This document shows, in pieces, positions 3,191 through 21,162 of a stretch of DNA of 25,952 nt. The translations under genes were made by a program, and so were the position numbers. Origin of the DNA: Candidatus Aenigmatarchaeota archaeon (GTDB lineage Archaea; Aenigmatarchaeota; Aenigmatarchaeia; QMZP01); NCBI GenBank assembly GCA_039091855.1, contig JAWCLA010000005.1, positions 3,361 to 29,312 of the forward strand, read 5' to 3'. The notes under the pieces were generated by a model, which saw only the letters and a program-made list of their open reading frames with translations, did not search any database and had not been told where the DNA came from. Position 1 is the stretch's first letter. Each line of letters starts with the position of its first letter.

Positions 3191-6100
3191 TTACGAAGCC
3201 ATGCACCTCATCGGCTTCTCAAGCGCCTTTTTCTCCGAGAATTCCAGCCTGTCCCTGAACTCTTCCTGCTTGCCGGCATTCCAGTTCCTTACGGGCCTGA
3301 AGTATCCAACAATCCTTGTGTAGACCTCGTTCTCTCTGCCACAAGTTGGGCATATTTCAACCTCTCCCTTCTGGTATCCGTGCTCCTTGCAAATGCTGAA
3401 AGTGGGTGTTATAGAGAAGTAAGGAAGTTTTGTGTTGAACGCTATCTTCTTCACGAGGGTTTTTGCCGCCTCGCCACTTGAAAGCCTCTCACCAAGGAAT
3501 GTGTGGAATATTGTCCCTCCTGTATAAAGAGGTTGTATGTCGTTCTGGTGCTCAAGAGCCTTTACCAAGTCGTCTGTGTAATTCACTGGCAGTTGGGTTG
3601 AATTTGTAAGATATGGTTCCTTCTCTCCTGCGGTGTATATGTCCGGATACATCTGCTTGTCAAGCCTGGCAAGCCTGTATGAAGTCGATTCGGCAGGCGT
3701 TGCCTCCAGGTTGTAAAGGTTTCCTGTCTCCATCTGGAACTGCCTTATCATATCCCTCATAAATTTAAGGACCTTTATCGTGAATGCCTTTCCCTCCGGT
3801 GTTGAGATGTCCTTCTTCAGGAAGTTGACGCAGCACTCGTTCATTCCACACAGGCCGATTGTTGAGAAATGGTTGTTGAACGTTCCCAAGTATGTCTTTG
3901 TATAAGGCATAAGCCCGTTCTGTAGGTTTTTCTCAATAACCTTCCTCTTTATCTCCAAAGCGTCCCTTGCCAAAAGCATATAGTGCTTAAGCTTATCGAA
4001 GAACTCCTCCTCGCTCTTTGCCTCATAACCAATCCTGTTCATGTTTATTGTGACCACTCCTATGGAACCCGTGTTGTCTCCAGGTCCCCACATGTTTCCA
4101 GGCCTGTTCATAAGCTCTTTCTGGTCTATATTAAGCCTGCAGCACATTGCCCTTATCGCACCTGGGTCCAAGTCGCTTCCAACATAGTTCTGGAAGTATG
4201 GAGTCCCGTATTTTGCTGTCAGCTCGAAAAGCAGCTTTGCATTCTCGCTTTCCCAATCGAAATCCTTTGTCACATTGTAGGTGGGTATGGGGAATGTGAA
4301 TATTCTTCCGTTCGCATCGCCTTCCAGCATCACCTCAAGGAATGCCTTGTTTATCATGTCCATCTCCTTCTGGCAGTCCCCATAAGTGAAGTCCTGCGGC
4401 TTTCCGCCAACTATTGCTGGCTCGTTCTTCAAATCCTCGGGAACAGTCCAGTCAAACGTGAGGTTAGAAAACGGGTATTGTGAATTGCCGCTTATAAAAA
4501 CCTTTCCATTTCTTCTAACAATTACTGTGCCGTTGGTCGTCGTCGGACACCACACCATCCCATCATAGTCAACATCCTCTATTCTCCCCACCTGCGTAAA
4601 ATCATGCTTTATAATTCTTACAGTATAAATCCCGTTTTCGTTCAAAGAACATGTGCTTCCCCATCCTGCCTTTACAGCAAGCTCCTGAAATATATCTGCA
4701 TCCTCTTTCTTCTTTGTATAAATCTTATTCTCCTTTGACCAGCCATCTGCTCTCATATAAGTTTCAAGGAATTCTCTTGCCTGCTCTGTTGAAAGATCTC
4801 TTACTGCAGAAGGAACATCTTTCTTGTATTCAGGAAAGAATTGTTTGTAAATTCTTTTTGAATCTGGTCTGCTTAGCCTGAATCTTACGCAGTTTCTTTT
4901 TCCGGTATATCCAGAAGCTCTCATCATCTCATCAAAATTAATTCCAAGATTACCAAGGGTCCCTCTTATTTCAACGCAGTTTTCAGGATTAATTTCAGCT
5001 GACTGGTGTATTGCTGTCCTTTCATTTTTGCAAAGACTGCCCTCTGAAACTATCCAAGATAAAAGGTTTACCATGTCTGAATTCATTTCCGTGCCTTTGA
5101 ATCTTCCTCCCAATGGCACAAGCGGCGTCTTGGTTTTCAGTTTATCTGCCTCCTCAAATACGTATTTAGACTCAGAAATCCCTTTCTTGTAATTATGTAT
5201 TCTTCTTAGAACCCTGTGATTAGGAGTGACCAATTGATCTGTTATCCTATTTACCAGTCTCTTCATCTTGCCTTTATAGTGATATTTTGTCATTCTCAGA
5301 ACAGGCAGGTATTCTATTTCCTCGCTTTTCATATTAAATGTGGCTATTAACTCTCCTTCTTTTAAATTTACACCCCTTTTCCATCCATCCTTGGTAAGGA
5401 TTTCTGTATCCTCACTAAAGCATCCCCACCTTGAAGGTATATTAAGTGAGAAAACGAGCTGCTGCATGTTCTGCTTTACTGCCTTGTAGTCAAGCTTCTC
5501 AACCTTCACGAAAGGCGCAAGGAATGTGTCAACGCTTGAGAATGCCTGAGCGCCTGCGAACTCCATCTGCAAGCAGCCGATATAGTTTACCATCTGGTGA
5601 ACAACCGTTGAAAGGTGCTTTGCCGGCTTGCAGTCAACCTTGTTCGGAACACCGCCAAAACCCCTCACGAGAAGGTTCTTTAGGGACCAGCCGGCACAAT
5701 TGTGAGCCAAAATACCATTGCATAAAAACGTGTGGGTTTTTGTAGTAATGTCATAAACAAATTCACTGTCATTTTTTATATACTCTATCTTCCTTAAGCT
5801 GCTGAACTGCTTTTTCTTGTAGAATTTCTTGGAATATTTGAAATCCCTTCCTATTTTCAGGCTTTCGGTGAAAAGATGTGATTTCTCCTGCGGTATGAAT
5901 AATGTGAGGGAATAAAGCTGCTTTCTCGGGGAGATTATGGTTTCCTTATATTTTCTCTCCCCAAAAGACTCGATTGTGCATAATGATGAGTTTATCCTTT
6001 GACATTCCAACCAAAACTGGATTTGGCTAAGAAGGGTCTTCGAGGTCATTCTTATGTTTACTCTTGATACCCATGGATCATCATTCCTAACAGCACCATC

Positions 6101-7978
6101 ACCATCTATGATCCCTGATATCATACCGCCGATAAATTCAGGGTTGTAATTCATAAAGTCGATAGGAAGATTCTTGTTTTCCGAGTATGGTCTGATAGTT
6201 GCAAATAGTGTCTGCATATCATGTGGAAGGCTGTTTATTGGAACATCAAGTATCATACTGCCTTCAATATGCTGTATACCGGCATTAGAACTTCTCTGTG
6301 AAAGGTTGTAGGCTATTCCGTTAATGTCAAGATATGAAACAAGCTTTCGGAAAACAGCGTCTTCAGCTGCCATCTCGAAGCTAAGGTACCCTTTTTTGTA
6401 ATACCCTTCTGATATGAAAAGTCCTATGAACCATCCATCAATTGCGGCCATGTTGATTTTATTATGTGGGCTCAACTCAAAATTGGGTGTTATGACATAA
6501 TTATTAAGGGTTATTTCGTCCGCGCGTTTTTCCTTTCTGCTATAAAATTCCGGAATAAAAACAGGTAGACTAAAGTTTGATTCACATGACTTGCACCTGT
6601 AATAGTCCTTCTCACCATCCTTTAATCTCTTTCTGGACCTTGTTTTAATTATATTTATTGAGTTGCATACAGGACAGGCAGAATTCTTGGTATCATCAAG
6701 GGTGATGAAGGGATGGTCTGCTGTGACTATTATATTGTGTCCATTGAACGAATTGAATGATATAAGAGGCTTGTCTGACTTGTGCCTAAGCAACCTCTCT
6801 ATGTCGGTCCATCCACCTTCATCAAGAATTTCATAGTCAGTTGAATATTTTATCTCGAATCCGTTATCTGTTTCTATAGGGGTATCAACGAGGTCAAAAA
6901 GCTGCTCAAGGCTAAGCGTAAGTATATCTTTTGTTTTCTTGTGCCTGACCACAACAACCTCATTCCTGTAAAAGGAATACCCTATCACCCCGTGTGACAA
7001 ATCGTGTATGTGGAAATATCCCTTCCTGTGAGCCTCCGCAATCGCAGGGGTGTACATCCTTGTAAGGTTGTAGTTGGCCATAACCTTTCCCGCTGCATAA
7101 AGAAGCAGTCCTGAAAATGAGTATTGCTCGTTGCTGTTCTCCCTTACCCTCCAGTCTTCCTGGTTTATGTAAGAGTCAATTGTCTGCTCAACATCCACAA
7201 ATGTTGACTTTGTTTCCCTTATCTTTGCCTGCTGCTCCCTGTAAAGTATGAACGCCTTAGCCGTCTTCGCGTGTCCGTTCTCTATCAGTATCTTCTCAAC
7301 TATGTCCTGTATCTGCTCAACCTGCGGTGGGTTCTTGTCAGTAAACCTTCCTTCCAGTGCCTCTACAACCTTGTCGGCAAGCCCCTCTGCTATGCTTTTG
7401 TCAGTCCCTCCAACAGACTCAGCTGCCTTCCATATAGCGTTTACTATTCTTTCCCTGTCAAACTTCACTACCGTTCCGTCCCTTTTTATGACATAATGAA
7501 GTTTCGGCTTCAGTCCGAGCCTTTCCCTTTCCTCTGCGAGCTTCTTCAGCTCTGCCTCAAATGATGTTATGTCAGTGAATTCCTTGTAAACAGAAGCGTA
7601 TCTTATGTATGCAACCTTGTCGGTCTCCTTCAGCTTCTTCATCACAAGCTCTCCTATGAATTTTGTAGAAACCTCTGGCTTCTCCGCCTTCCTAAGTTCG
7701 CTTTCAATCTCGTCCACTATCCTCTCTATCTGCTCTTGTGTTATTGTCCTTTTCTCGCAGGCCTTTGTTATGCTTGTCTGCAGCTTTCTCCTATCATAAT
7801 TTTCCCTTCTGCCGTCCTTCTTTATCACCGCCAAGTCAACGGCCTCAACCCTCTCGTAAGTCGTGAACCTCTTCCCGCATTTCTCGCACTCCCTTCTCCT
7901 TCTCGTAATCATTAGATCAGAAGTCTCCCTCTTGTCAATTACCTTGTTTTCCTCAGAACCGCAATAAGGGCATTTCAT
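3191..7978 (-). CDS. nrdD: NrdR repressor fused to class III anaerobic ribonucleotide reductase NrdD, with two inteins (1595-aa precursor, about 856 aa spliced)
   Basis: Start reassigned to ATG 7978 (MKCPYCG) with GGAGG upstream. NrdD motifs: own ATP-cone (VIKRDG), HIHDL, Y|CAGWSL, GAQAF, FTFPIPT, RAMCCRL finger loop, EATPAES, YLTNSTQ, zinc site CKEH...CPTC, glycyl-radical YTRIVGY. Confidence 0.95.
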   Translation of the reverse strand: MKCPYCGSEENKVIDKRETSDLMITRRRRECEKCGKRFTTYERVEAVDLAVIKKDGRRENYDRRKLQTSITKACEKRTITQEQIERIVDEIESELRKAEKPEVSTKFIGELVMKKLKETDKVAYIRYASVYKEFTDITSFEAELKKLAEERERLGLKPKLHYVIKRDGTVVKFDRERIVNAIWKAAESVGGTDKSIAEGLADKVVEALEGRFTDKNPPQVEQIQDIVEKILIENGHAKTAKAFILYREQQAKIRETKSTFVDVEQTIDSYINQEDWRVRENSNEQYSFSGLLLYAAGKVMANYNLTRMYTPAIAEAHRKGYFHIHDLSHGVIGYSFYRNEVVVVRHKKTKDILTLSLEQLFDLVDTPIETDNGFEIKYSTDYEILDEGGWTDIERLLRHKSDKPLISFNSFNGHNIIVTADHPFITLDDTKNSACPVCNSINIIKTRSRKRLKDGEKDYYRCKSCESNFSLPVFIPEFYSRKEKRADEITLNNYVITPNFELSPHNKINMAAIDGWFIGLFISEGYYKKGYLSFEMAAEDAVFRKLVSYLDINGIAYNLSQRSSNAGIQHIEGSMILDVPINSLPHDMQTLFATIRPYSENKNLPIDFMNYNPEFIGGMISGIIDGDGAVRNDDPWVSRVNIRMTSKTLLSQIQFWLECQRINSSLCTIESFGERKYKETIISPRKQLYSLTLFIPQEKSHLFTESLKIGRDFKYSKKFYKKKQFSSLRKIEYIKNDSEFVYDITTKTHTFLCNGILAHNCAGWSLKNLLVRGFGGVPNKVDCKPAKHLSTVVHQMVNYIGCLQMEFAGAQAFSSVDTFLAPFVKVEKLDYKAVKQNMQQLVFSLNIPSRWGCFSEDTEILTKDGWKRGVNLKEGELIATFNMKSEEIEYLPVLRMTKYHYKGKMKRLVNRITDQLVTPNHRVLRRIHNYKKGISESKYVFEEADKLKTKTPLVPLGGRFKGTEMNSDMVNLLSWIVSEGSLCKNERTAIHQSAEINPENCVEIRGTLGNLGINFDEMMRASGYTGKRNCVRFRLSRPDSKRIYKQFFPEYKKDVPSAVRDLSTEQAREFLETYMRADGWSKENKIYTKKKEDADIFQELAVKAGWGSTCSLNENGIYTVRIIKHDFTQVGRIEDVDYDGMVWCPTTTNGTVIVRRNGKVFISGNSQYPFSNLTFDWTVPEDLKNEPAIVGGKPQDFTYGDCQKEMDMINKAFLEVMLEGDANGRIFTFPIPTYNVTKDFDWESENAKLLFELTAKYGTPYFQNYVGSDLDPGAIRAMCCRLNIDQKELMNRPGNMWGPGDNTGSIGVVTINMNRIGYEAKSEEEFFDKLKHYMLLARDALEIKRKVIEKNLQNGLMPYTKTYLGTFNNHFSTIGLCGMNECCVNFLKKDISTPEGKAFTIKVLKFMRDMIRQFQMETGNLYNLEATPAESTSYRLARLDKQMYPDIYTAGEKEPYLTNSTQLPVNYTDDLVKALEHQNDIQPLYTGGTIFHTFLGERLSSGEAAKTLVKKIAFNTKLPYFSITPTFSICKEHGYQKGEVEICPTCGRENEVYTRIVGYFRPVRNWNAGKQEEFRDRLEFSEKKALEKPMRCMAS
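4484..5422 (-). mobile_element. Intein 2 in nrdD (313 aa, LAGLIDADG-like, ends in GN)
   Basis: IPSRWG|CFSEDTEILTKDGWK, block B VTPNHR, LLSWIVSEG and FLETYMRADG, C-terminus YDGMVWCPTTTNGTVIVRRNGKVFISGN|SQYPFSN. Confidence 0.93.
5699..6976 (-). mobile_element. Intein 1 in nrdD (426 aa, Ser1, LAGLIDADG endonuclease, inserted zinc ribbon)
   Basis: VIGY|SFYRNE..., block B VTADHPF, FIGLFISEG and ISGIIDGDG, C-terminus VYDITTKTHTFLCNGILAHN|CAGWSL. Confidence 0.93.
7535..7978 (-). other. nrdR: Full-length NrdR domain (zinc ribbon plus ATP-cone) at the N-terminus of the nrdD ORF
   Basis: MKCPYCG...KVIDKR...RRRRECEKCGKRFTTYER, VIKKDGRRE.YDR.K, and DKVAYIRYASVYKEF. This is the whole NrdR signature, with no stop before NrdD. 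Confidence 0.92.
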
Positions 7979-7981
7979 ATA

Positions 7982-8128
7982 TTTCGCCTCCTGACAATTC
8001 AATCTCAACGACTTGACGGGGAAGGTGTCTCCTGACACCTTCAGGCAAGGTTTCGCCTCCTGACAATTCAATCTCAACGACTTGACGGGGAAGGTGAGTC
8101 ACAGACTGATATAAAGTCTGTCACCTTC
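7982..8128 (-). repeat. Tandem pair of a structured leader element (46-bp perfect direct repeat plus variable hairpin)
   Basis: + strand TTTCGCCTCCTGACAATTCAATCTCAACGACTTGACGGGGAAGGTG at 7982-8027 and 8051-8096. Each copy continues into a GAAGG...CCTTC hairpin, ending at 8042 and 8128. Confidence 0.95.
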
Positions 8129-8206: not shown

Positions 8207-8276
8207 AAACTACCACTTGGTCATAATAACACAAGCACTTGTGCCTTATCCCACGCTCCAACACAACATCTTGTAG
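8207..8276. promoter_or_regulatory. Tandem NrdR-box-like operators
   Basis: ACACAACATCTTGTAG (8261-8276) fits the NrdR box consensus acaCwAtATaTwGtgt. Weaker boxes are ACACAAGCACTTGTGC (8229-8244) and AAACTACCACTTGGTC (8207-8222). Offsets are 32 and 22 bp. Confidence 0.75.
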
Positions 8277-8295
8277 TAAACTATTTTACTTAAGG

Positions 8296-14179: not shown

Positions 14180-15553
14180 ATGCAAGTGAAAAGCAATAAA
14201 AGTCATTTGATTGCAGCTTTCTTTGTGGGTTTTGTTGTTTCAATCTCTCCTCTCTTGATAAGGTGGGGTGTTGGAATTCCTGGAATAATCGGCTTCCCTA
14301 CCTACTATCACCAAAGAATTGCTGGGTACATAGTTGAGGGAAGCTTCAATTGGTATGACCCGCTCAGTTTTGGGGGCAGGAATTACACATATCCGCCTTT
14401 GTTTTCATATATGCTTGCAGGATTCGCTCTTCCATTCGGGCTCGAAATTGGCGGAGTCATAATGATGGGCCTGTTGGGAGGTCTCACAGCAGTCATATGT
14501 TTCCTGATAGCAATAGAATTGATAGGAAAAAACAAGTGCAAATTGTTCATTGCTGTACTTCTTTCCTCGCCCGCATTCATATTTCTTTTCTCCCACCTTT
14601 CCACGCGTTCGCCTCCAATTCTTTTGGGGCTTCTTGGAATATACCTAACTATCAAGAAAAAGGCCTGGTGGGTTGTTTCGCTTCCCCTTTTCCTTTCCTT
14701 CGTTTTTCACCCTGAAACAGGCTTGTTTTTTTCCTTCCTTTGCTTTATTGCAACCAAAAATTATCTGAACAGCCTGAAAATGGTTTTGTTGGCAATTCTG
14801 GCTGCCGGGATTTTCTGCTTGCCATTCTTCTTAGCTTATGGCCTTCCACAACCAAACGCCATACACGAGGATTATGCATATAGAGGATATGGATTGGAAT
14901 CATTCAACATTCGCTTTTTTGCCTGGGAAACAGGGGAAAACTATGATAATGTTGCTCTCCTTGTTTTGATTTTTTCTCTTGCAGGATTTTACTTTACGAA
15001 AAACCGCTTTACGAGAATATGGCTGGTCGTCTCACTAATTGTTGCACTTGCTTCCACAAGACTGCTTTTATACCTAGTTTTTCCTGCCACAATTCTTGCT
15101 ACAACAGGGATTTACAAAATATCAGAGAAAAAGAAATATAGAAAATTTCTGCTCGGAAGCTTCCTTGTTTATTCTGTGGTTATTGGGGTGTGGTCTGCAT
15201 TTGCCTTCGGTACATCTTACCCAACCAAGAGCCAGACAGAAGCCATGCTCTGGATAAAGCAAAACACACCTGAAAACGTGACTGTTATAGCCGACTGGGC
15301 GCACGGGCACTGGATAACGGGAATCGCCTACCGCAAGACATTTGTGGACGGATATGCCGAGTATGCCCCGCAAGCGGACAAGAGGATGGCAGAGTTAAAG
15401 GAGTTTTACAAAACCTGCAAAATTCCCGAGGGCTATGGGATAGAATACGCCTATTTTGAGGACTGGTTCATAAAGAGCCAGAACATAACCTGCCTTGACA
15501 GATTCCGGAAAGTATACGACAAGGACTGGATTTATGTTTTTAAGCTTCAGTAG
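14180..15553 (+). CDS. Multi-pass GT-C/STT3-like membrane protein
   Basis: YYH.R...YDPLSFGGRNYTYPPLF loop, many TM helices, C-terminal AMLWIKQNTPEN.TVIADWAHGHWI resembling the AglB/STT3 WWDYG region. Confidence 0.65.
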   Translation: MQVKSNKSHLIAAFFVGFVVSISPLLIRWGVGIPGIIGFPTYYHQRIAGYIVEGSFNWYDPLSFGGRNYTYPPLFSYMLAGFALPFGLEIGGVIMMGLLGGLTAVICFLIAIELIGKNKCKLFIAVLLSSPAFIFLFSHLSTRSPPILLGLLGIYLTIKKKAWWVVSLPLFLSFVFHPETGLFFSFLCFIATKNYLNSLKMVLLAILAAGIFCLPFFLAYGLPQPNAIHEDYAYRGYGLESFNIRFFAWETGENYDNVALLVLIFSLAGFYFTKNRFTRIWLVVSLIVALASTRLLLYLVFPATILATTGIYKISEKKKYRKFLLGSFLVYSVVIGVWSAFAFGTSYPTKSQTEAMLWIKQNTPENVTVIADWAHGHWITGIAYRKTFVDGYAEYAPQADKRMAELKEFYKTCKIPEGYGIEYAYFEDWFIKSQNITCLDRFRKVYDKDWIYVFKLQ

Positions 15554-17805
15554 CCTTTTTTTGCAATGGCTGATTTAATCCACTTCGTCCATTGGTTATA
15601 AATCCTGTCTGGCTCCGCTGCCCCTGTTTCCTCCCTTAACTGTTCCTGTATGAGATGGAACATCTGGTTTGACTTTACAACCCAAGGGGCTTCAAGGATG
15701 TCAGGGTTTTTTGTCTTTTCTGAAATCTCCACCATGGTTTGCTTTATCTTTGCCCTCAGCTGTATGTTCTCCCAAACCGCTTCCCAGTCCCCGCTCCACT
15801 CCTTTACATAAGATGCAATCCTGTTAAGGATTTCTGATTCCCCATTCAGAAAGGTTGATGTCGGCTTCAACGTGTCCTCCTTGCCTGAGTATTCCATAAG
15901 ATTGACAAAGGCTCCCTCCTTGGTGGGATTTTTTTCCCACTCCTTTCTGACCTCGGTAATCTCTGTCATTCTCCTGAACCTGTGCATGCCGTCCGCAGAG
16001 CGAAGTGACTTGCATATGGGGATTATGTCAGTTGCCTTGAAAGAGGTTGGTGGGACACCGAGGTCGTTTACGACCCTGTCATACACTCCGTAAGCTGATT
16101 CTCCGTGTATTGTCCCTGCAACCACATTTGACAAGGCGCCTATCCTCATTGCCTCGTAAAGGGTTTTTGCCTCCACAGACCTGACCTCGCCAACTATAAG
16201 GGCAGAGTCACCAAGCCTCAGGGCGGTCCTCAATGCCTCGTCAGCAGGCATCTCTGTCTCCACCCTTGTTATCACAGAACGGGATTTCAGCCTTTCAATG
16301 TTGTAGTGGAGTTCTTTCAGCTGATCAACCGGAAGTTCTAACGTGTCCTCGATAGTAACTATCCTTGTTTTTGGAAGCATCTCCAGCATAAGAGAGCCTA
16401 ACACAGATGTTTTTCCTGCACCCCTTCCTCCCGCAACCAGAATGCTGACAGCACCATCAACGAGGAATGAAAGCAACCCCGCTGCAAGAGGATTAAGCAT
16501 CTTTGTCTTTATGAAAAGCGGAAGCGTCCAGGGCCTGTCCCTGTGCCTTCTTATGGCAAAACCTATGCCGTGGGGAGAAAGCGTCCTTGTTATTACACAA
16601 AACCTCGCGTTTCCTCCTGGGACGCCAACATCCGTGTCCAATACAGGATTCGCCTCGTCCAAAGGCCTTCCTGAATGAATCCTTAGTCTCGTTGCCCAGC
16701 TTTCGGCATCCTCCATGCTCGGTATAAGGTTGGTCTTGCACTCTTCCCAGTCCTGATGATATATCATTATGGGCTGGTTTTCGACAGGAGAGTTAACATA
16801 AATGTCCTGTATCTTCTCGTCAGCCAGGAGGATTTCAAGTACACCCAATCCTGCTGTGTATCGGGTGAGTATTGTCGCTATTTCTTCTATGTCAGCCAGG
16901 CTTAGCGATATGCCCATGCTGTCTGCCATCTCCCTTATCATATCCTTTCCTATGCTGTAGAATATGTCCCTGACGTTCTTGGATTTAACGAACTCGACGC
17001 TTTTTGGCCTGTGAGCTGCCATGTATTTCCTTGCAGCGTCCAAAACAGAATATTTCTCCTCAGATAGCTTGAATTCCGGGGGTATTACATGGTAAAAGTA
17101 ACCCGCATGACCAGGGACCTTGAAAATCTCCACATCCGTTTTACCTACCTTGTACCTGTCGACAGACCTGCCGCCTTCCGGAGGGGCAATCATATACCTG
17201 GTAAGCATGAAATTCGGGCGCACGCTCGGGCTGAATATCTGCCTGTAAAGAGACCTGTCACCTATATGGTAGCCAGCTATGTGTGGTTTTGCCAATGTTA
17301 TGAGCTTTGTTGACTCGAGCTTTTTTCTCAGAACCTCGAGGATGTTGTCCCTGTAATGGACAAGGCAGTCATAACATTTACTGCTTGTTGCCTTCTTAAT
17401 CTTTATGTTTACTATCCTTATTTCCCTAACAAGCTCAACATAAGCCCCTATCGGGTCTCTCCTTAGAAGGTCTATCACTATCTCGTGAAGCTTTGACATC
17501 CTTCCTGGATAGCATTTCTCGCATTCCGCTATGTTGATGTTCTTTCTTGATATCAGCCTGCTCCTTATCACCTCTTCAATAACCCTCGCTATCTCAACGA
17601 GCATTCTTGTCTGCTCGTAATCATACTCATATTCGCGGTTTTTTGCGAGAACAATGGTGTTTACCTTCTTGACCTCAAGCAGCTTGTCTATCGTTCTTGC
17701 CATGCACTCTTCGAAATCCTCTATCGAGGCTCCGAATAAACAACCGATGCAGTTTACCCTTAGTTTCATCCGCTCTTCATCATACTCATAGTCGCAAACA
17801 GCCAC
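15547..17805 (-). CDS. Type IV pilus/archaellum/secretion ATPase (FlaI/TadA/VirB11 family) with Cys-rich N-terminus
   Basis: Walker A GGRGAGKT, TIEDTLEL, ALRLGDSALIVGEVRS, GTIHGES. GTG start. Confidence 0.92.
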   Translation of the reverse strand: MAVCDYEYDEERMKLRVNCIGCLFGASIEDFEECMARTIDKLLEVKKVNTIVLAKNREYEYDYEQTRMLVEIARVIEEVIRSRLISRKNINIAECEKCYPGRMSKLHEIVIDLLRRDPIGAYVELVREIRIVNIKIKKATSSKCYDCLVHYRDNILEVLRKKLESTKLITLAKPHIAGYHIGDRSLYRQIFSPSVRPNFMLTRYMIAPPEGGRSVDRYKVGKTDVEIFKVPGHAGYFYHVIPPEFKLSEEKYSVLDAARKYMAAHRPKSVEFVKSKNVRDIFYSIGKDMIREMADSMGISLSLADIEEIATILTRYTAGLGVLEILLADEKIQDIYVNSPVENQPIMIYHQDWEECKTNLIPSMEDAESWATRLRIHSGRPLDEANPVLDTDVGVPGGNARFCVITRTLSPHGIGFAIRRHRDRPWTLPLFIKTKMLNPLAAGLLSFLVDGAVSILVAGGRGAGKTSVLGSLMLEMLPKTRIVTIEDTLELPVDQLKELHYNIERLKSRSVITRVETEMPADEALRTALRLGDSALIVGEVRSVEAKTLYEAMRIGALSNVVAGTIHGESAYGVYDRVVNDLGVPPTSFKATDIIPICKSLRSADGMHRFRRMTEITEVRKEWEKNPTKEGAFVNLMEYSGKEDTLKPTSTFLNGESEILNRIASYVKEWSGDWEAVWENIQLRAKIKQTMVEISEKTKNPDILEAPWVVKSNQMFHLIQEQLREETGAAEPDRIYNQWTKWIKSAIAKKGY

Positions 17806-19374: not shown

Positions 19375-19905
19375 TTATTTAGGTTTCTCTTCCTTTGGTT
19401 TCTCTTCGCCCTGTGTCATAAACCACATCGCAAGGGCTATTATTATGATTACTATTATGAAGGTTGTGAAGTCAGAGTTTACTATGAAAGATGGAACGTT
19501 TATGAACCAACCACCGCCAGCCCCGAAAAACACTATTATTCCGATTAGTATTATCGCGAAAATAAGGAACCACTTCATATAAGTTCCACTGAAAACCTCG
19601 TGCAACCTGAATCCTGCCAATCCTAACAGTATTGCTATCACGAGTATTCCTGAAGCAACAACAAGCGTTGTTCCGCCAAGGGATGCGAAGAAGCCAACAA
19701 TCATAGGCTCTGAGCTTGCGTAAAGCATCACAAAGAATGAGAGAATGATTGAAATCAGCCCAACAGGACCTTTCTTTAGTTTATCACCTAAAGCGTATGA
19801 AAGGGTTCCGTAAATTACTGCCAGAGCAAGAAGGAACGGGAACAAGTATTGGAATAGTCCAAGGTTCTGCATCGAATTGACAAACGTGTTGAAATCAAAA
19901 GCCAT
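19375..19905 (-). CDS. Multi-pass membrane protein (paralog A)
   Basis: About five hydrophobic helices, LGLFQYLFPFLLALAVIYGTL. TTTATAAA at 19928-19935 suggests its own leaderless promoter. Confidence 0.8.
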   Translation of the reverse strand: MAFDFNTFVNSMQNLGLFQYLFPFLLALAVIYGTLSYALGDKLKKGPVGLISIILSFFVMLYASSEPMIVGFFASLGGTTLVVASGILVIAILLGLAGFRLHEVFSGTYMKWFLIFAIILIGIIVFFGAGGGWFINVPSFIVNSDFTTFIIVIIIIALAMWFMTQGEEKPKEEKPK

Positions 19906-19936: not shown

Positions 19937-20443
19937 TTACTTTGATTGCGTTATGAACCAGGCGGAAAAGCCGAGTATTGCAAGAAGCATCGCTATCGTA
20001 AGTATTTCTGTGCTTTCCAGGAAGTTCGTCCCGAATATTGCCGCTCCTGCGGAAACGGCGAATATTATTATACCTATCAAAAAAATCGAGCCCGTGAACA
20101 CCCACTTTGCCTTCTCGTTCTTTGTTATGTCCTCGAACTTTATGCCTATCAGCCCGAGAAGTATTATTATTCCGAGAAGCCCTGCTGCCACTATCAAAGT
20201 GAAGCCAAACGCATTTCCGAAGAAAACCACAATCCTAGGATTCCACAGAGAGAAAAGCATAACGAAAAGTCCCATAACTATGGATATCAAAGCCCTTGCG
20301 GACTTCTCAAGCTGCTTCTCCATAGCGTAAGAAAGCACACCATAAGTTAATGCAAGCGTAAGAAGGAATGGAAAAAGGTAAAGGAATATTCCCATTTTCT
20401 CGAGCCCGAGAATCATTGGCGGAAAGGGATTGGTTAATGCCAT
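19937..20443 (-). CDS. Multi-pass membrane protein (paralog B)
   Basis: Start reassigned to MALTNPF (20443) by collinearity with paralog A (MGIFLYLFPFLLTLALTYGVLSYA). Confidence 0.8.
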   Translation of the reverse strand: MALTNPFPPMILGLEKMGIFLYLFPFLLTLALTYGVLSYAMEKQLEKSARALISIVMGLFVMLFSLWNPRIVVFFGNAFGFTLIVAAGLLGIIILLGLIGIKFEDITKNEKAKWVFTGSIFLIGIIIFAVSAGAAIFGTNFLESTEILTIAMLLAILGFSAWFITQSK

Positions 20444-20446
20444 ACA

Positions 20447-20543
20447 TTTCGCCTTGCAACAATTCAATTTGCCGTTTTTTAACTTCCTGACTTGACGGAG
20501 AAGGCAGTTACACTGCCTTCCAATTGCACTTCGCCTTGTGACA
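20447..20543 (-). repeat. Third, diverged copy (plus partial fourth) of the structured leader element found upstream of nrdR-nrdD
   Basis: + strand TTTCGCCT-tgca-ACAATTCAAT-20 nt-GACTTGACGG-a-GAAGGcagt-tac-actgCCTTC (20447-20520), then after 8 nt cTTCGCCTtgTGACA. Confidence 0.85.
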
Positions 20544-20634
20544 GGTTTTCTATTCAATAATATTTGTGAATGTAGGCTTATATTTCTTGATTTCAAAATC
20601 CAAAGATTTACAATAAGCCATTCTATTGTATATT

Positions 20635-21162
20635 TCAACCTTTGCCTTTGTGCCTCAGTCCCCTTGCCTTCTTTCCCGCTGATGTCAAGCCACGGAAAAC
20701 CCTACCTTTCTGGTTTTTTCTTGCTATCCAGTTTATGTTCTTGTCTGCCTTTATTGAGGGGTGGTTCGGGTCAACCAGTATGCACTCGTACCACTTGTTT
20801 TTTCCGTCCTCGCCAACCCAGTAGGAGTTTAGGACACGAAGGTTTGGGAATTTTCTTGCTGCCCTTTCCTCTGCAACGACCTGCCAGGATTTCCCCAAGG
20901 GATAAAACCTTCCTGATGCCTTTGGCCTCCTTCCTCCTGCGGGCTTTGGTGTTTTTCTCCTTCCCCTAGGGACCTTGACCCTGACAACAACAAATCCCTG
21001 CTTCGCCTTGTAGCCAAGCTCCCTTGCCCTTCCAATCCTTGTGGGCTTTTCTATCCTCTGAATGGATTTCTCCTTTCTCCACTGGACAAGCATATTCTTC
21101 CAGTTCGGCATTTCCTTCGGGGTTTTCCAAAGTTTTTCCATCTGCCTGTAAGCGCTTTCCAT
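20635..21162 (-). CDS. rpl15e: 50S ribosomal protein L15e
   Basis: [72 protein letters not shown]. Start MESAY at 21162. Confidence 0.97.

Follow-up and report, generated by a model that had tools for sequence, protein, structure and literature searches.

A hairpin repeat of one archaeal lineage, found in the short 5' leaders of unrelated genes

We found that the stretch upstream of a membrane-protein gene at positions 20543..20441 (minus strand) of the window, by which we mean the whole 25,952-nucleotide stretch of Candidatus Aenigmatarchaeota DNA analysed here, forms one unit of a modular repeat that is non-coding and specific to one lineage. The repeat family has many copies scattered through the genome, and sister species differ by gains and losses of copies; distant loci have identical hairpin variants in common, copy number varies within arrays, and in gene leaders the orientation of the element is always that of the downstream gene. 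We think it probable, with real room left for other readings, that this hairpin repeat is modular, strand-polar and non-autonomous, and that it colonises very short 5' leaders, to which it brings a surrogate Shine-Dalgarno box.

A preliminary description of the region had claimed that every block of the leader of the nrd gene recurs at 20543..20441, in order, up to the ATG, and our reading of the minus strand bears this out. The element and its surroundings are as follows.

20577..20585, minus strand: AAATATAAG, TATA-like box (putative function), upstream of the membrane gene in congeners too
20542..20530, minus strand: 5' box GTCACAAGGCGAA (GTCAC plus AAGGCGAA), 13 nt
between 20530 and 20521, minus strand: spacer of 8 nt separating the 5' box (20542..20530) from the hairpin (20521..20499)
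20521..20499, minus strand: hairpin G-GAAGGCAGT/GTA/ACTGCCTTC-T, with the RNA 3' arm ACUGCCUUC-U
20498..20489, minus strand: conserved single-stranded block CCGTCAAGTC, immediately 3' of the hairpin
20488..20469, minus strand: variable linker, 20 nt in this element
20468..20456, minus strand: ATTGAATTGT (20468..20459) plus TGC, the lead-in to the terminal box
20455..20444, minus strand: terminal box AAGGCGAA (20455..20448) plus the 4-nt spacer ATGT
19937..20443, minus strand: downstream gene for a 168-aa multi-pass membrane protein, ATG at 20443..20441

The hairpin consists of a closing G.U pair, the conserved base GAAG/CUUC, a variable upper stem (GCAGU/ACUGC) and a GUA triloop. The direct repeats said to flank the unit are real, and correspond to the 13-mer GTCACAAGGCGAA, which borders nearly every unit of the family and lies 8-9 nt ahead of the hairpin. 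Block CCGTCAAGTC occurs exactly three times in the window, every time inside this unit or the units at nrd. The terminal box is Shine-Dalgarno-like (AGGCGA, compared to the genome's usual AGGTGA) and lies 5 nt ahead of the ATG; the entire element sits between the TATA-like box AAATATAAG and this ATG. The assignment of the start codon to 20443 held, in that ATGGCATTG opens the orthologues of three congeners at the corresponding alignment position, upstream of which the sequences diverge. The sole Pfam match of the membrane protein is a weak one to DUF2070, under the curated cut-off, and the gene immediately upstream encodes ribosomal protein L15e, which marks the host as archaeal. We also note that the membrane genes at 19375-19905 and 19937-20443 (minus strand) are tandem paralogues with a common N-terminal motif (..FLYLFPFLLxLAxxYGxLSYA..), and that the leader unit is found only at the upstream paralogue (19937-20443), the gene at 19375-19905 having none.

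The nrd leader (8128..7979, minus strand) is made of two tandem units with a 69-nt period.

8051..8128, minus strand: unit A, 39-nt hairpin, CCGTCAAGTC, ATTGAATTGT, box CAGGAGGCGAAA
7979..8042, minus strand: unit B, 22-nt hairpin, CCGTCAAGTC, ATTGAATTGT, box CAGGAGGCGAAA, TAT, then the ATG at 7978

When both leaders were read side by side, the two differences that had been pointed out between them were present: the linker is 6 nt at nrd compared to 20 nt in the window element, and the upper stem is swapped by compensatory pairs (UGUC/GACA at nrd, CAGU/ACUG in the window element). In the 1595-aa product of the nrd gene (3191-7978, minus strand), an NrdR zinc ribbon and ATP cones are fused to NrdD; intein sequence breaks up the gene (Pfam Intein_splicing and LAGLIDADG; two inserts by eye). 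Upstream of it, at 8229-8277 (minus strand), lie palindrome-like boxes ACTACAAGATGTTGTGT and CACAAGTGCTTGTGT (15-17 nt, ~33 nt apart), kept in congeners as ACACAAGATATTGTGT / ACACAAGATACTGTGT, which we take to resemble NrdR boxes. Since such boxes stand upstream of a gene in which NrdR is fused to NrdD, this arrangement suggests self-regulation by the fused repressor-enzyme.

We searched the assembly (689 kb, 38 contigs, 84% complete, 42% G+C) with a loose motif, then with an nhmmer profile from 29 units, and then with a covariance model, R1, built on 33 distinct units, whose matches were counted at E<=0.01. The nhmmer profile yielded 42 units and R1 yielded 43 matches over the whole assembly, on 13 contigs, and the stem covaries among them. 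Thus, the window element belongs to a genome-wide family and is not a local duplication, as had been proposed. Simple patterns agreed: CCGTCAAGTC-N(1-40)-TTGAATTG had 5 matches in the genome and the exact box-hairpin pattern had 30, compared to 0 for the reversed control in each case. The units, as grouped by nhmmer, form 22 arrays of 1-6 units each, two of which run off contig ends, and the family occupies roughly 0.5% of the assembly. The consensus unit is a box GUCACAAGGCGAA, ~8 nt, a hairpin with a GGAAG/CUUCU base, UCCGUCAAGUC and a variable linker; units are spaced 66-82 nt apart (66, 67, 69, 78, 80 or 82), or 118-121 nt where the linker is longer. Each array closes with one extra box, such that n hairpins have n+1 boxes. 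The 21-nt hairpin of the window unit is found, identical, at 6 places on 5 contigs. Among metagenome contigs from four DNA runs, depth was 58-73 over 20439-20572 and ~4 on the flanks, as expected for a repeat; no contig in these runs spanned an empty site.

Two further observations were made in the course of these searches. A smaller depth peak (12 compared to ~3.5), with loose ends on both sides, covers 20975-21041 inside the L15e gene, and is probably a conserved stretch common to other organisms. In addition, a second module of ~44 nt, 'X' (ATTGACGAAnTCGACCAACATAAnAAAnTCGTCTTTCCAAA), with GACGA/TCGTC as an inverted repeat of its own, is found as a single or double copy in front of several hairpin arrays on contigs 4, 6, 33, 37 and 38 (e.g. 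contig 4, 8785-8870).

The stem is maintained by compensatory change. Pairing held in 98.1% of 264 cells, and double-sided changes were seen in 44 cells compared to 11.8 in shuffles (0 of 500 shuffles as high), a control that overstates independence because the units are mostly paralogues of one genome. The base GAAG/CUUC is invariant in this genome, and each of the three pairs above it shows 3-5 pair types; sliding the partner column reduced pairing to 38-58%. Where pairs depart from Watson-Crick, they are G.U when read in sense (28 closing pairs, 6 within the stem), consistent with folding of either the sense RNA or the corresponding DNA strand. The whole leader folds no better than shuffles (z = -1.19). 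Across 13 folded leaders we saw no recurrent helix that hides the box or start codon, and the mean unpaired probability of the box was 0.40 at 37 C and 0.55 at 65 C. Rfam 15 gave no match at gathering score over the whole window and, at E<=10 over 20380-20640, just three chance matches to lncRNAs. Hand inspection around the leader units revealed no bulge-helix-bulge motif for the splicing endonuclease. We also considered that the repeat might encode a peptide, and rejected this because the conserved blocks lie in different frames in adjacent units.

The arrays are closely tied to gene starts. Fourteen of the 22 end in AGG[CT]GA followed, after 5 nt, by an ATG that begins an open frame of 40 aa or more, with a box-to-ATG spacing of 5 nt in all 14. 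Pfam names nine of these 14 genes: EF-1beta, a MinD/ParA ATPase (whose array has six units), L37ae, FttA, S8e, a tRNA-binding domain protein, RadA, RNA polymerase subunit N (RpoN) and NrdR-NrdD. The remaining five are four genes with no Pfam family, three of them encoding small membrane proteins, and the window's gene with the weak DUF2070 match. The genes downstream of arrays are mutually unrelated, with no common pathway, and all 17 arrays that stand ahead of genes are in sense orientation. The words enriched before start codons throughout the genome are AGGTG, GGTGA and GGAGG, and thus AAGGCGA is the box of the element, not the general site of the organism. Its AGGCGA has one mismatch to the standard anti-Shine-Dalgarno sequence, and the assembly contains no SSU (16S) rRNA gene.

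Several arrays deviate from this arrangement. One ends in its own ATG, 13 nt upstream of a gene start and out of frame, with the native GGGGTG kept; another is followed by an 18-codon frame and then the gene; a third lies ~95 nt upstream of a gene with an A+T-rich box of its own; and a fourth is in intergenic DNA between convergent genes. At a pilin gene on contig 12, the array has AAG where other arrays show ATG, and is open in frame back to an upstream ATG; in light of the genome-wide picture, we read this array, too, as a leader repeat. The sequence there is AAGGCGAAGCTT-AAG-GGC-CAG (15310-15330; locus L001, about 1675), and candidate starts for this pilin-like gene are a TTG inside the last unit or a far-upstream in-frame ATG.

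Copies also lie in two tRNA introns. One array is antisense within the intron of a tRNA(CAU) gene (contig 11, 12049-12294; locus L017, 1425-1670); this intron, ~190 nt long and in the canonical position, contains a complete antisense unit and two perfect anti-box stretches. ARAGORN called no tRNA at this locus; the gene was identified by eye and by a 5' exon 95-98% identical in four congeners. A tRNA-Leu(CAA)-like gene (contig 2, about 15440-15640) has a sense hairpin and box in its intron, which contains a GAAGGTGGC/GCCACCTTC hairpin, CCGTCAA and a AAGGCGAAA box. The 'ATG' found five bases after the box in the tRNA(CAU) copy is the complement of the anticodon, and in G062, a genome of a second genus, the 'ATG' after a box lies at the 5' end of a tRNA gene and is no protein start. 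These two cases hint that the ATG belongs to the end of the element, or that insertion takes an ATG as landmark.

To find out how widely the family is distributed, we searched related genomes, all of them, like this one, incomplete draft assemblies, with R1. Matches were present in 7 of 47 genomes of the taxonomic family, this genome included, and in none of the other 40. All four other genomes of the genus matched (12, 6, 9 and 5 matches), G062 had 13 matches and G057 had a single weak one, while in a sample of the phylum 4 of 151 genomes matched. We detected no match to the exact pattern in viral contigs. In public genome contigs there were 21 single exact-pattern matches in unrelated bacteria, which we judged to be chance, as we did three in public metagenome contigs of 61-70% G+C that had no other blocks. 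Judging from these searches, the family was not seen outside this genus except in one genome of a neighbouring genus. The box AGTCACAAGGCGAAAG and 3' flank TCTCCGTCACTGTC of G062 are nearly identical to those here, but the entire hairpin differs (base GGACG/CGUCU).

We then read the DNA upstream of same-genus orthologues of seven unit-bearing genes (the membrane gene, nrd, a gene for an 84-aa EF-Tu-domain-2 protein, S8e, MinD, RadA and EF-1beta), omitting one S8e orthologue at a contig end. At E<=0.01, R1 had no match in any of the 25 assessable leaders. At the membrane gene, the empty site in G001, G002 and G003 reads AAATATAAGCC...ATTATTATCAGGTATCT-ATGGCATTG or similar; here, ~100 nt of element stand between the same TATA-like box and the same ATG. 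The preliminary description had raised the possibility of an empty site holding a single CAAGGCGAA, but none of these three congeners has one, and thus the boxes are brought in by the element, not made by duplication of a target. The reverse case exists as well: L15e has a unit in G003, starting 28 nt after a TTAAATAG box, and has none here, in G001 or in G002. Some genes carry the unit in more than one genome, namely RpoN (here and in G003), a small membrane protein that we name MFGWIG by its first residues (here, in G001 and in G002) and EF-1beta (here and in G062).

Hairpins with GAAGG/CCTTC arms and no flanks were found at nrd in G002, at the 84-aa gene in G003, at S8e in G001 and at EF-1beta in G003 and G004, as well as in the tRNA(CAU) introns of all four congeners. 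Thus, both leaders and introns are recurrent landing places for such hairpins. The nrd leader of G003 has no unit, and those of G002 and G004 have different hairpins. In G004, upstream of L15e (L069) and at contig 9, 16660-16714, stems are made from the box itself (GAAGGCGAA ... TTCGCCTTC), in some cases enclosing an inner GGAAGGCGTC hairpin, and this form is a related, differently folded subfamily.

Taken together, the gains and losses, the identical hairpins, the variable copy number, the unrelated genes and the intron copies point to a spreading repeat and argue against a conserved sensor or a fixed operator. We suggest that the element enters the short 5' untranslated region between a TATA-like box and the ATG, by landing or by copying, and would then be transcribed as a long structured leader. 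From the positions of the TATA-like boxes, empty leaders would be ~7-30 nt long, such that an insert that survives must be near the ATG and bring its own ribosome-binding site; this would explain part of the position lock, although the exact 5-nt spacing is more regular than the argument requires. Because a nearly leaderless gene would acquire a long leader, a ribosome-binding site would be needed, and the last box, AGGCGA, 5 nt before the ATG, may serve as the Shine-Dalgarno site. The hairpins may protect the 5' end of the mRNA, and arrays may expand and contract by slippage or unequal recombination between boxes.

The machinery that might move the element was sought among Y1 transposases and TnpB, since a co-occurring transposase had been put forward as a clue. 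The outcome was not the expected one. Two decayed genes of the IS200-type Y1 family are present (contig 37, 7094-7453 and 9001-9324, one with an in-frame TAG and the other lacking its N-terminus), and this genome alone among the five searched has Y1 matches. However, neither gene is beside a unit (the nearest, at contig 37, 4051-4105, is ~3 kb off), their flanks are unlike the unit, and relatives with no Y1 genes also carry units. TnpB (PF07282) was without a match in these five genomes, and the Y1_Tnp and TnpB searches revealed no autonomous parent whose ends are those of the unit. The Y1 region of contig 37 is also full of other short repeats, common to at least 8 other contigs.

Some properties of the family would also be expected of a functional RNA: the strict sense orientation and constant 5-nt spacing; the near-identity of the box and UCUCCGUCACUGUC between two genera whose hairpins differ; and the recurrence at the same genes (EF-1beta in this genome and G062, RpoN here and in G003, MFGWIG in three genomes). 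We considered that the units might be operators of a regulon, which we regard as unlikely, if a serious contender. Here the box, and perhaps the hairpin, would bind one RNA-binding protein or antisense RNA, with one site overlapping the ribosome-binding site and extras upstream, unit-bearing genes would be co-controlled after transcription, and mobility would merely be how new genes join. CsrA-type leaders work in this manner. The n+1 boxes per n hairpins, the last always at the Shine-Dalgarno position, fit this model, as do the box and 3' flank kept between genera while the hairpin sequence is free, the uniform sense orientation in leaders, and the many housekeeping and translation genes; furthermore, the two perfect anti-box stretches of the tRNA(CAU) intron could pair with boxes. 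In contrast, the unit is missing from all 25 orthologous leaders of the seven genes, copy number varies from 1 to 6, copies lie in tRNA introns and between convergent genes, no candidate binding protein was identified, and the unpaired probabilities of the 13 folded leaders reveal no consistent masking of the box.

The anti-box stretches could also belong to a more elaborate system, which we think has only a slim chance of being correct: a portable translation-start cassette read by a dedicated factor, combined with an antisense RNA from the tRNA(CAU) intron that titrates or masks boxes in trans. Insertion at the transcription start of nearly leaderless genes would then draw them into a common post-transcriptional circuit, with ribosomal proteins, RNA polymerase N, EF-1beta, RadA, NrdD and MinD as members.

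We give similarly little weight to action at the level of DNA, whereby each unit would be a promoter module with a TATA-like stretch and a start site, and tandem promoters would raise transcription. Long linkers are indeed A+T-rich (e.g. TAAACAATAATAAT), ~20 nt ahead of the next box, and the first unit of several arrays lies ~16-28 nt past a native TATA-like box. Short linkers, however, lack such a stretch (type CCGTCACTGTCGCTTTGTATGCAAGTCAC; at RpoN of G003 the blocks are only 5 nt apart), the linker words are unlike the native TATA-like boxes TTTATATA, TTAAATAT and ATATAAAG, and a promoter does not need a stem kept paired by compensatory and G.U changes. Finally, a ligand-sensing riboswitch, or an autoregulatory leader of the ribosomal-protein type, common to nrd and the other genes has very little to recommend it: the 5' leader position, covarying stem, conserved single-stranded blocks and tandem arrangement at nrd are what one would expect, but there is no match to an Rfam family even at E up to 10, one simple hairpin in place of a multi-helix pocket, no alternative fold that masks the Shine-Dalgarno site, no pathway common to the downstream genes, identical copies at unrelated loci, an nrd leader with no unit in G003 and with other hairpins in G002 and G004, and retention at orthologues only for RpoN (G003), MFGWIG (G001, G002) and EF-1beta (G062).

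We compared the family with known repeat systems. Like MIRUs, its units are 40-120 nt long, tandem, variable in number, intergenic at gene starts and oriented with the flanking gene. In MIRUs there are short ORFs overlapping the adjacent stop and start codons, whereas no unit-length ORF of this kind is present here: most spacings are no multiple of 3, the reading frame does not carry over from one unit to the next (66, 67, 69, 78, 80, 82 nt) and stem lengths differ. Moreover, the family here has a covarying hairpin, a Shine-Dalgarno-like box and an archaeal host. Terminal inverted repeats and target duplications are features of Correia elements and MITEs. In our family, by contrast, terminal inverted repeats are absent, the inverted repeat being internal (the hairpin) and the ends being direct copies of the box; no recurrent short target duplication was seen at the ends of arrays; and the units are strictly polar. 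The likeness to Correia elements and MITEs is that these are short, non-coding, multicopy and different between strains or species, and presence-absence between relatives was likewise found here. According to a review, Correia elements (CREE, Neisseria) are mostly immediately upstream of genes and can alter expression (PMC10969869); what the element here supplies is a putative ribosome-binding site and no sigma-70 promoter.

BOX elements of Streptococcus pneumoniae have the module structure A-B(n)-C. The family here likewise has a second module, the ~44-nt 'X' that precedes several arrays, and shares with BOX elements, which the same review mentions, its modularity, middle modules that vary in number, stable RNA folds by prediction and a clustering near genes. 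Unlike BOX, to which its sequence is unrelated, it resides in an archaeon and keeps its last module at a fixed 5 nt from the ATG. REP sequences are found chiefly at the ends of genes, in many cases as inverted pairs, and stand on either side of their RAYT gene. With REP/BIME and the ends of IS200/IS605 elements the family shares high-copy hairpins with a conserved foot, compensatory stem variation and conserved flanking single strands, as well as the presence of Y1 genes in the one genome with the expansion. However, the units here are direct and mostly in 5' leaders, and neither decayed Y1 gene is flanked by them. Rickettsia palindromic elements are also hairpin repeats, able to lie within an open reading frame; our units are leader elements, not coding inserts, with 14 of 22 arrays ending 5 nt before a start codon. 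At the level of titles and abstracts, the literature on archaeal and DPANN repeats, MITEs and tRNA-intron transposition yielded no description of the element.

The repeat has practical consequences, in that it breaks assemblies (units lie at two contig ends) and can mislead annotation, toward a false riboswitch or, at the pilin gene, a false long signal peptide. Ultra-small symbiotic archaeal genomes are thought to be stripped of repeats; here, a single small element has reshaped the leaders of core genes for information processing during the lifetime of one species. Should the box be a ribosome-binding site, each insertion would be a natural switch, made by one cassette, from a nearly leaderless to a Shine-Dalgarno-led gene, and, if this is true, the family would offer a direct handle on the evolution of archaeal translation-start modes.
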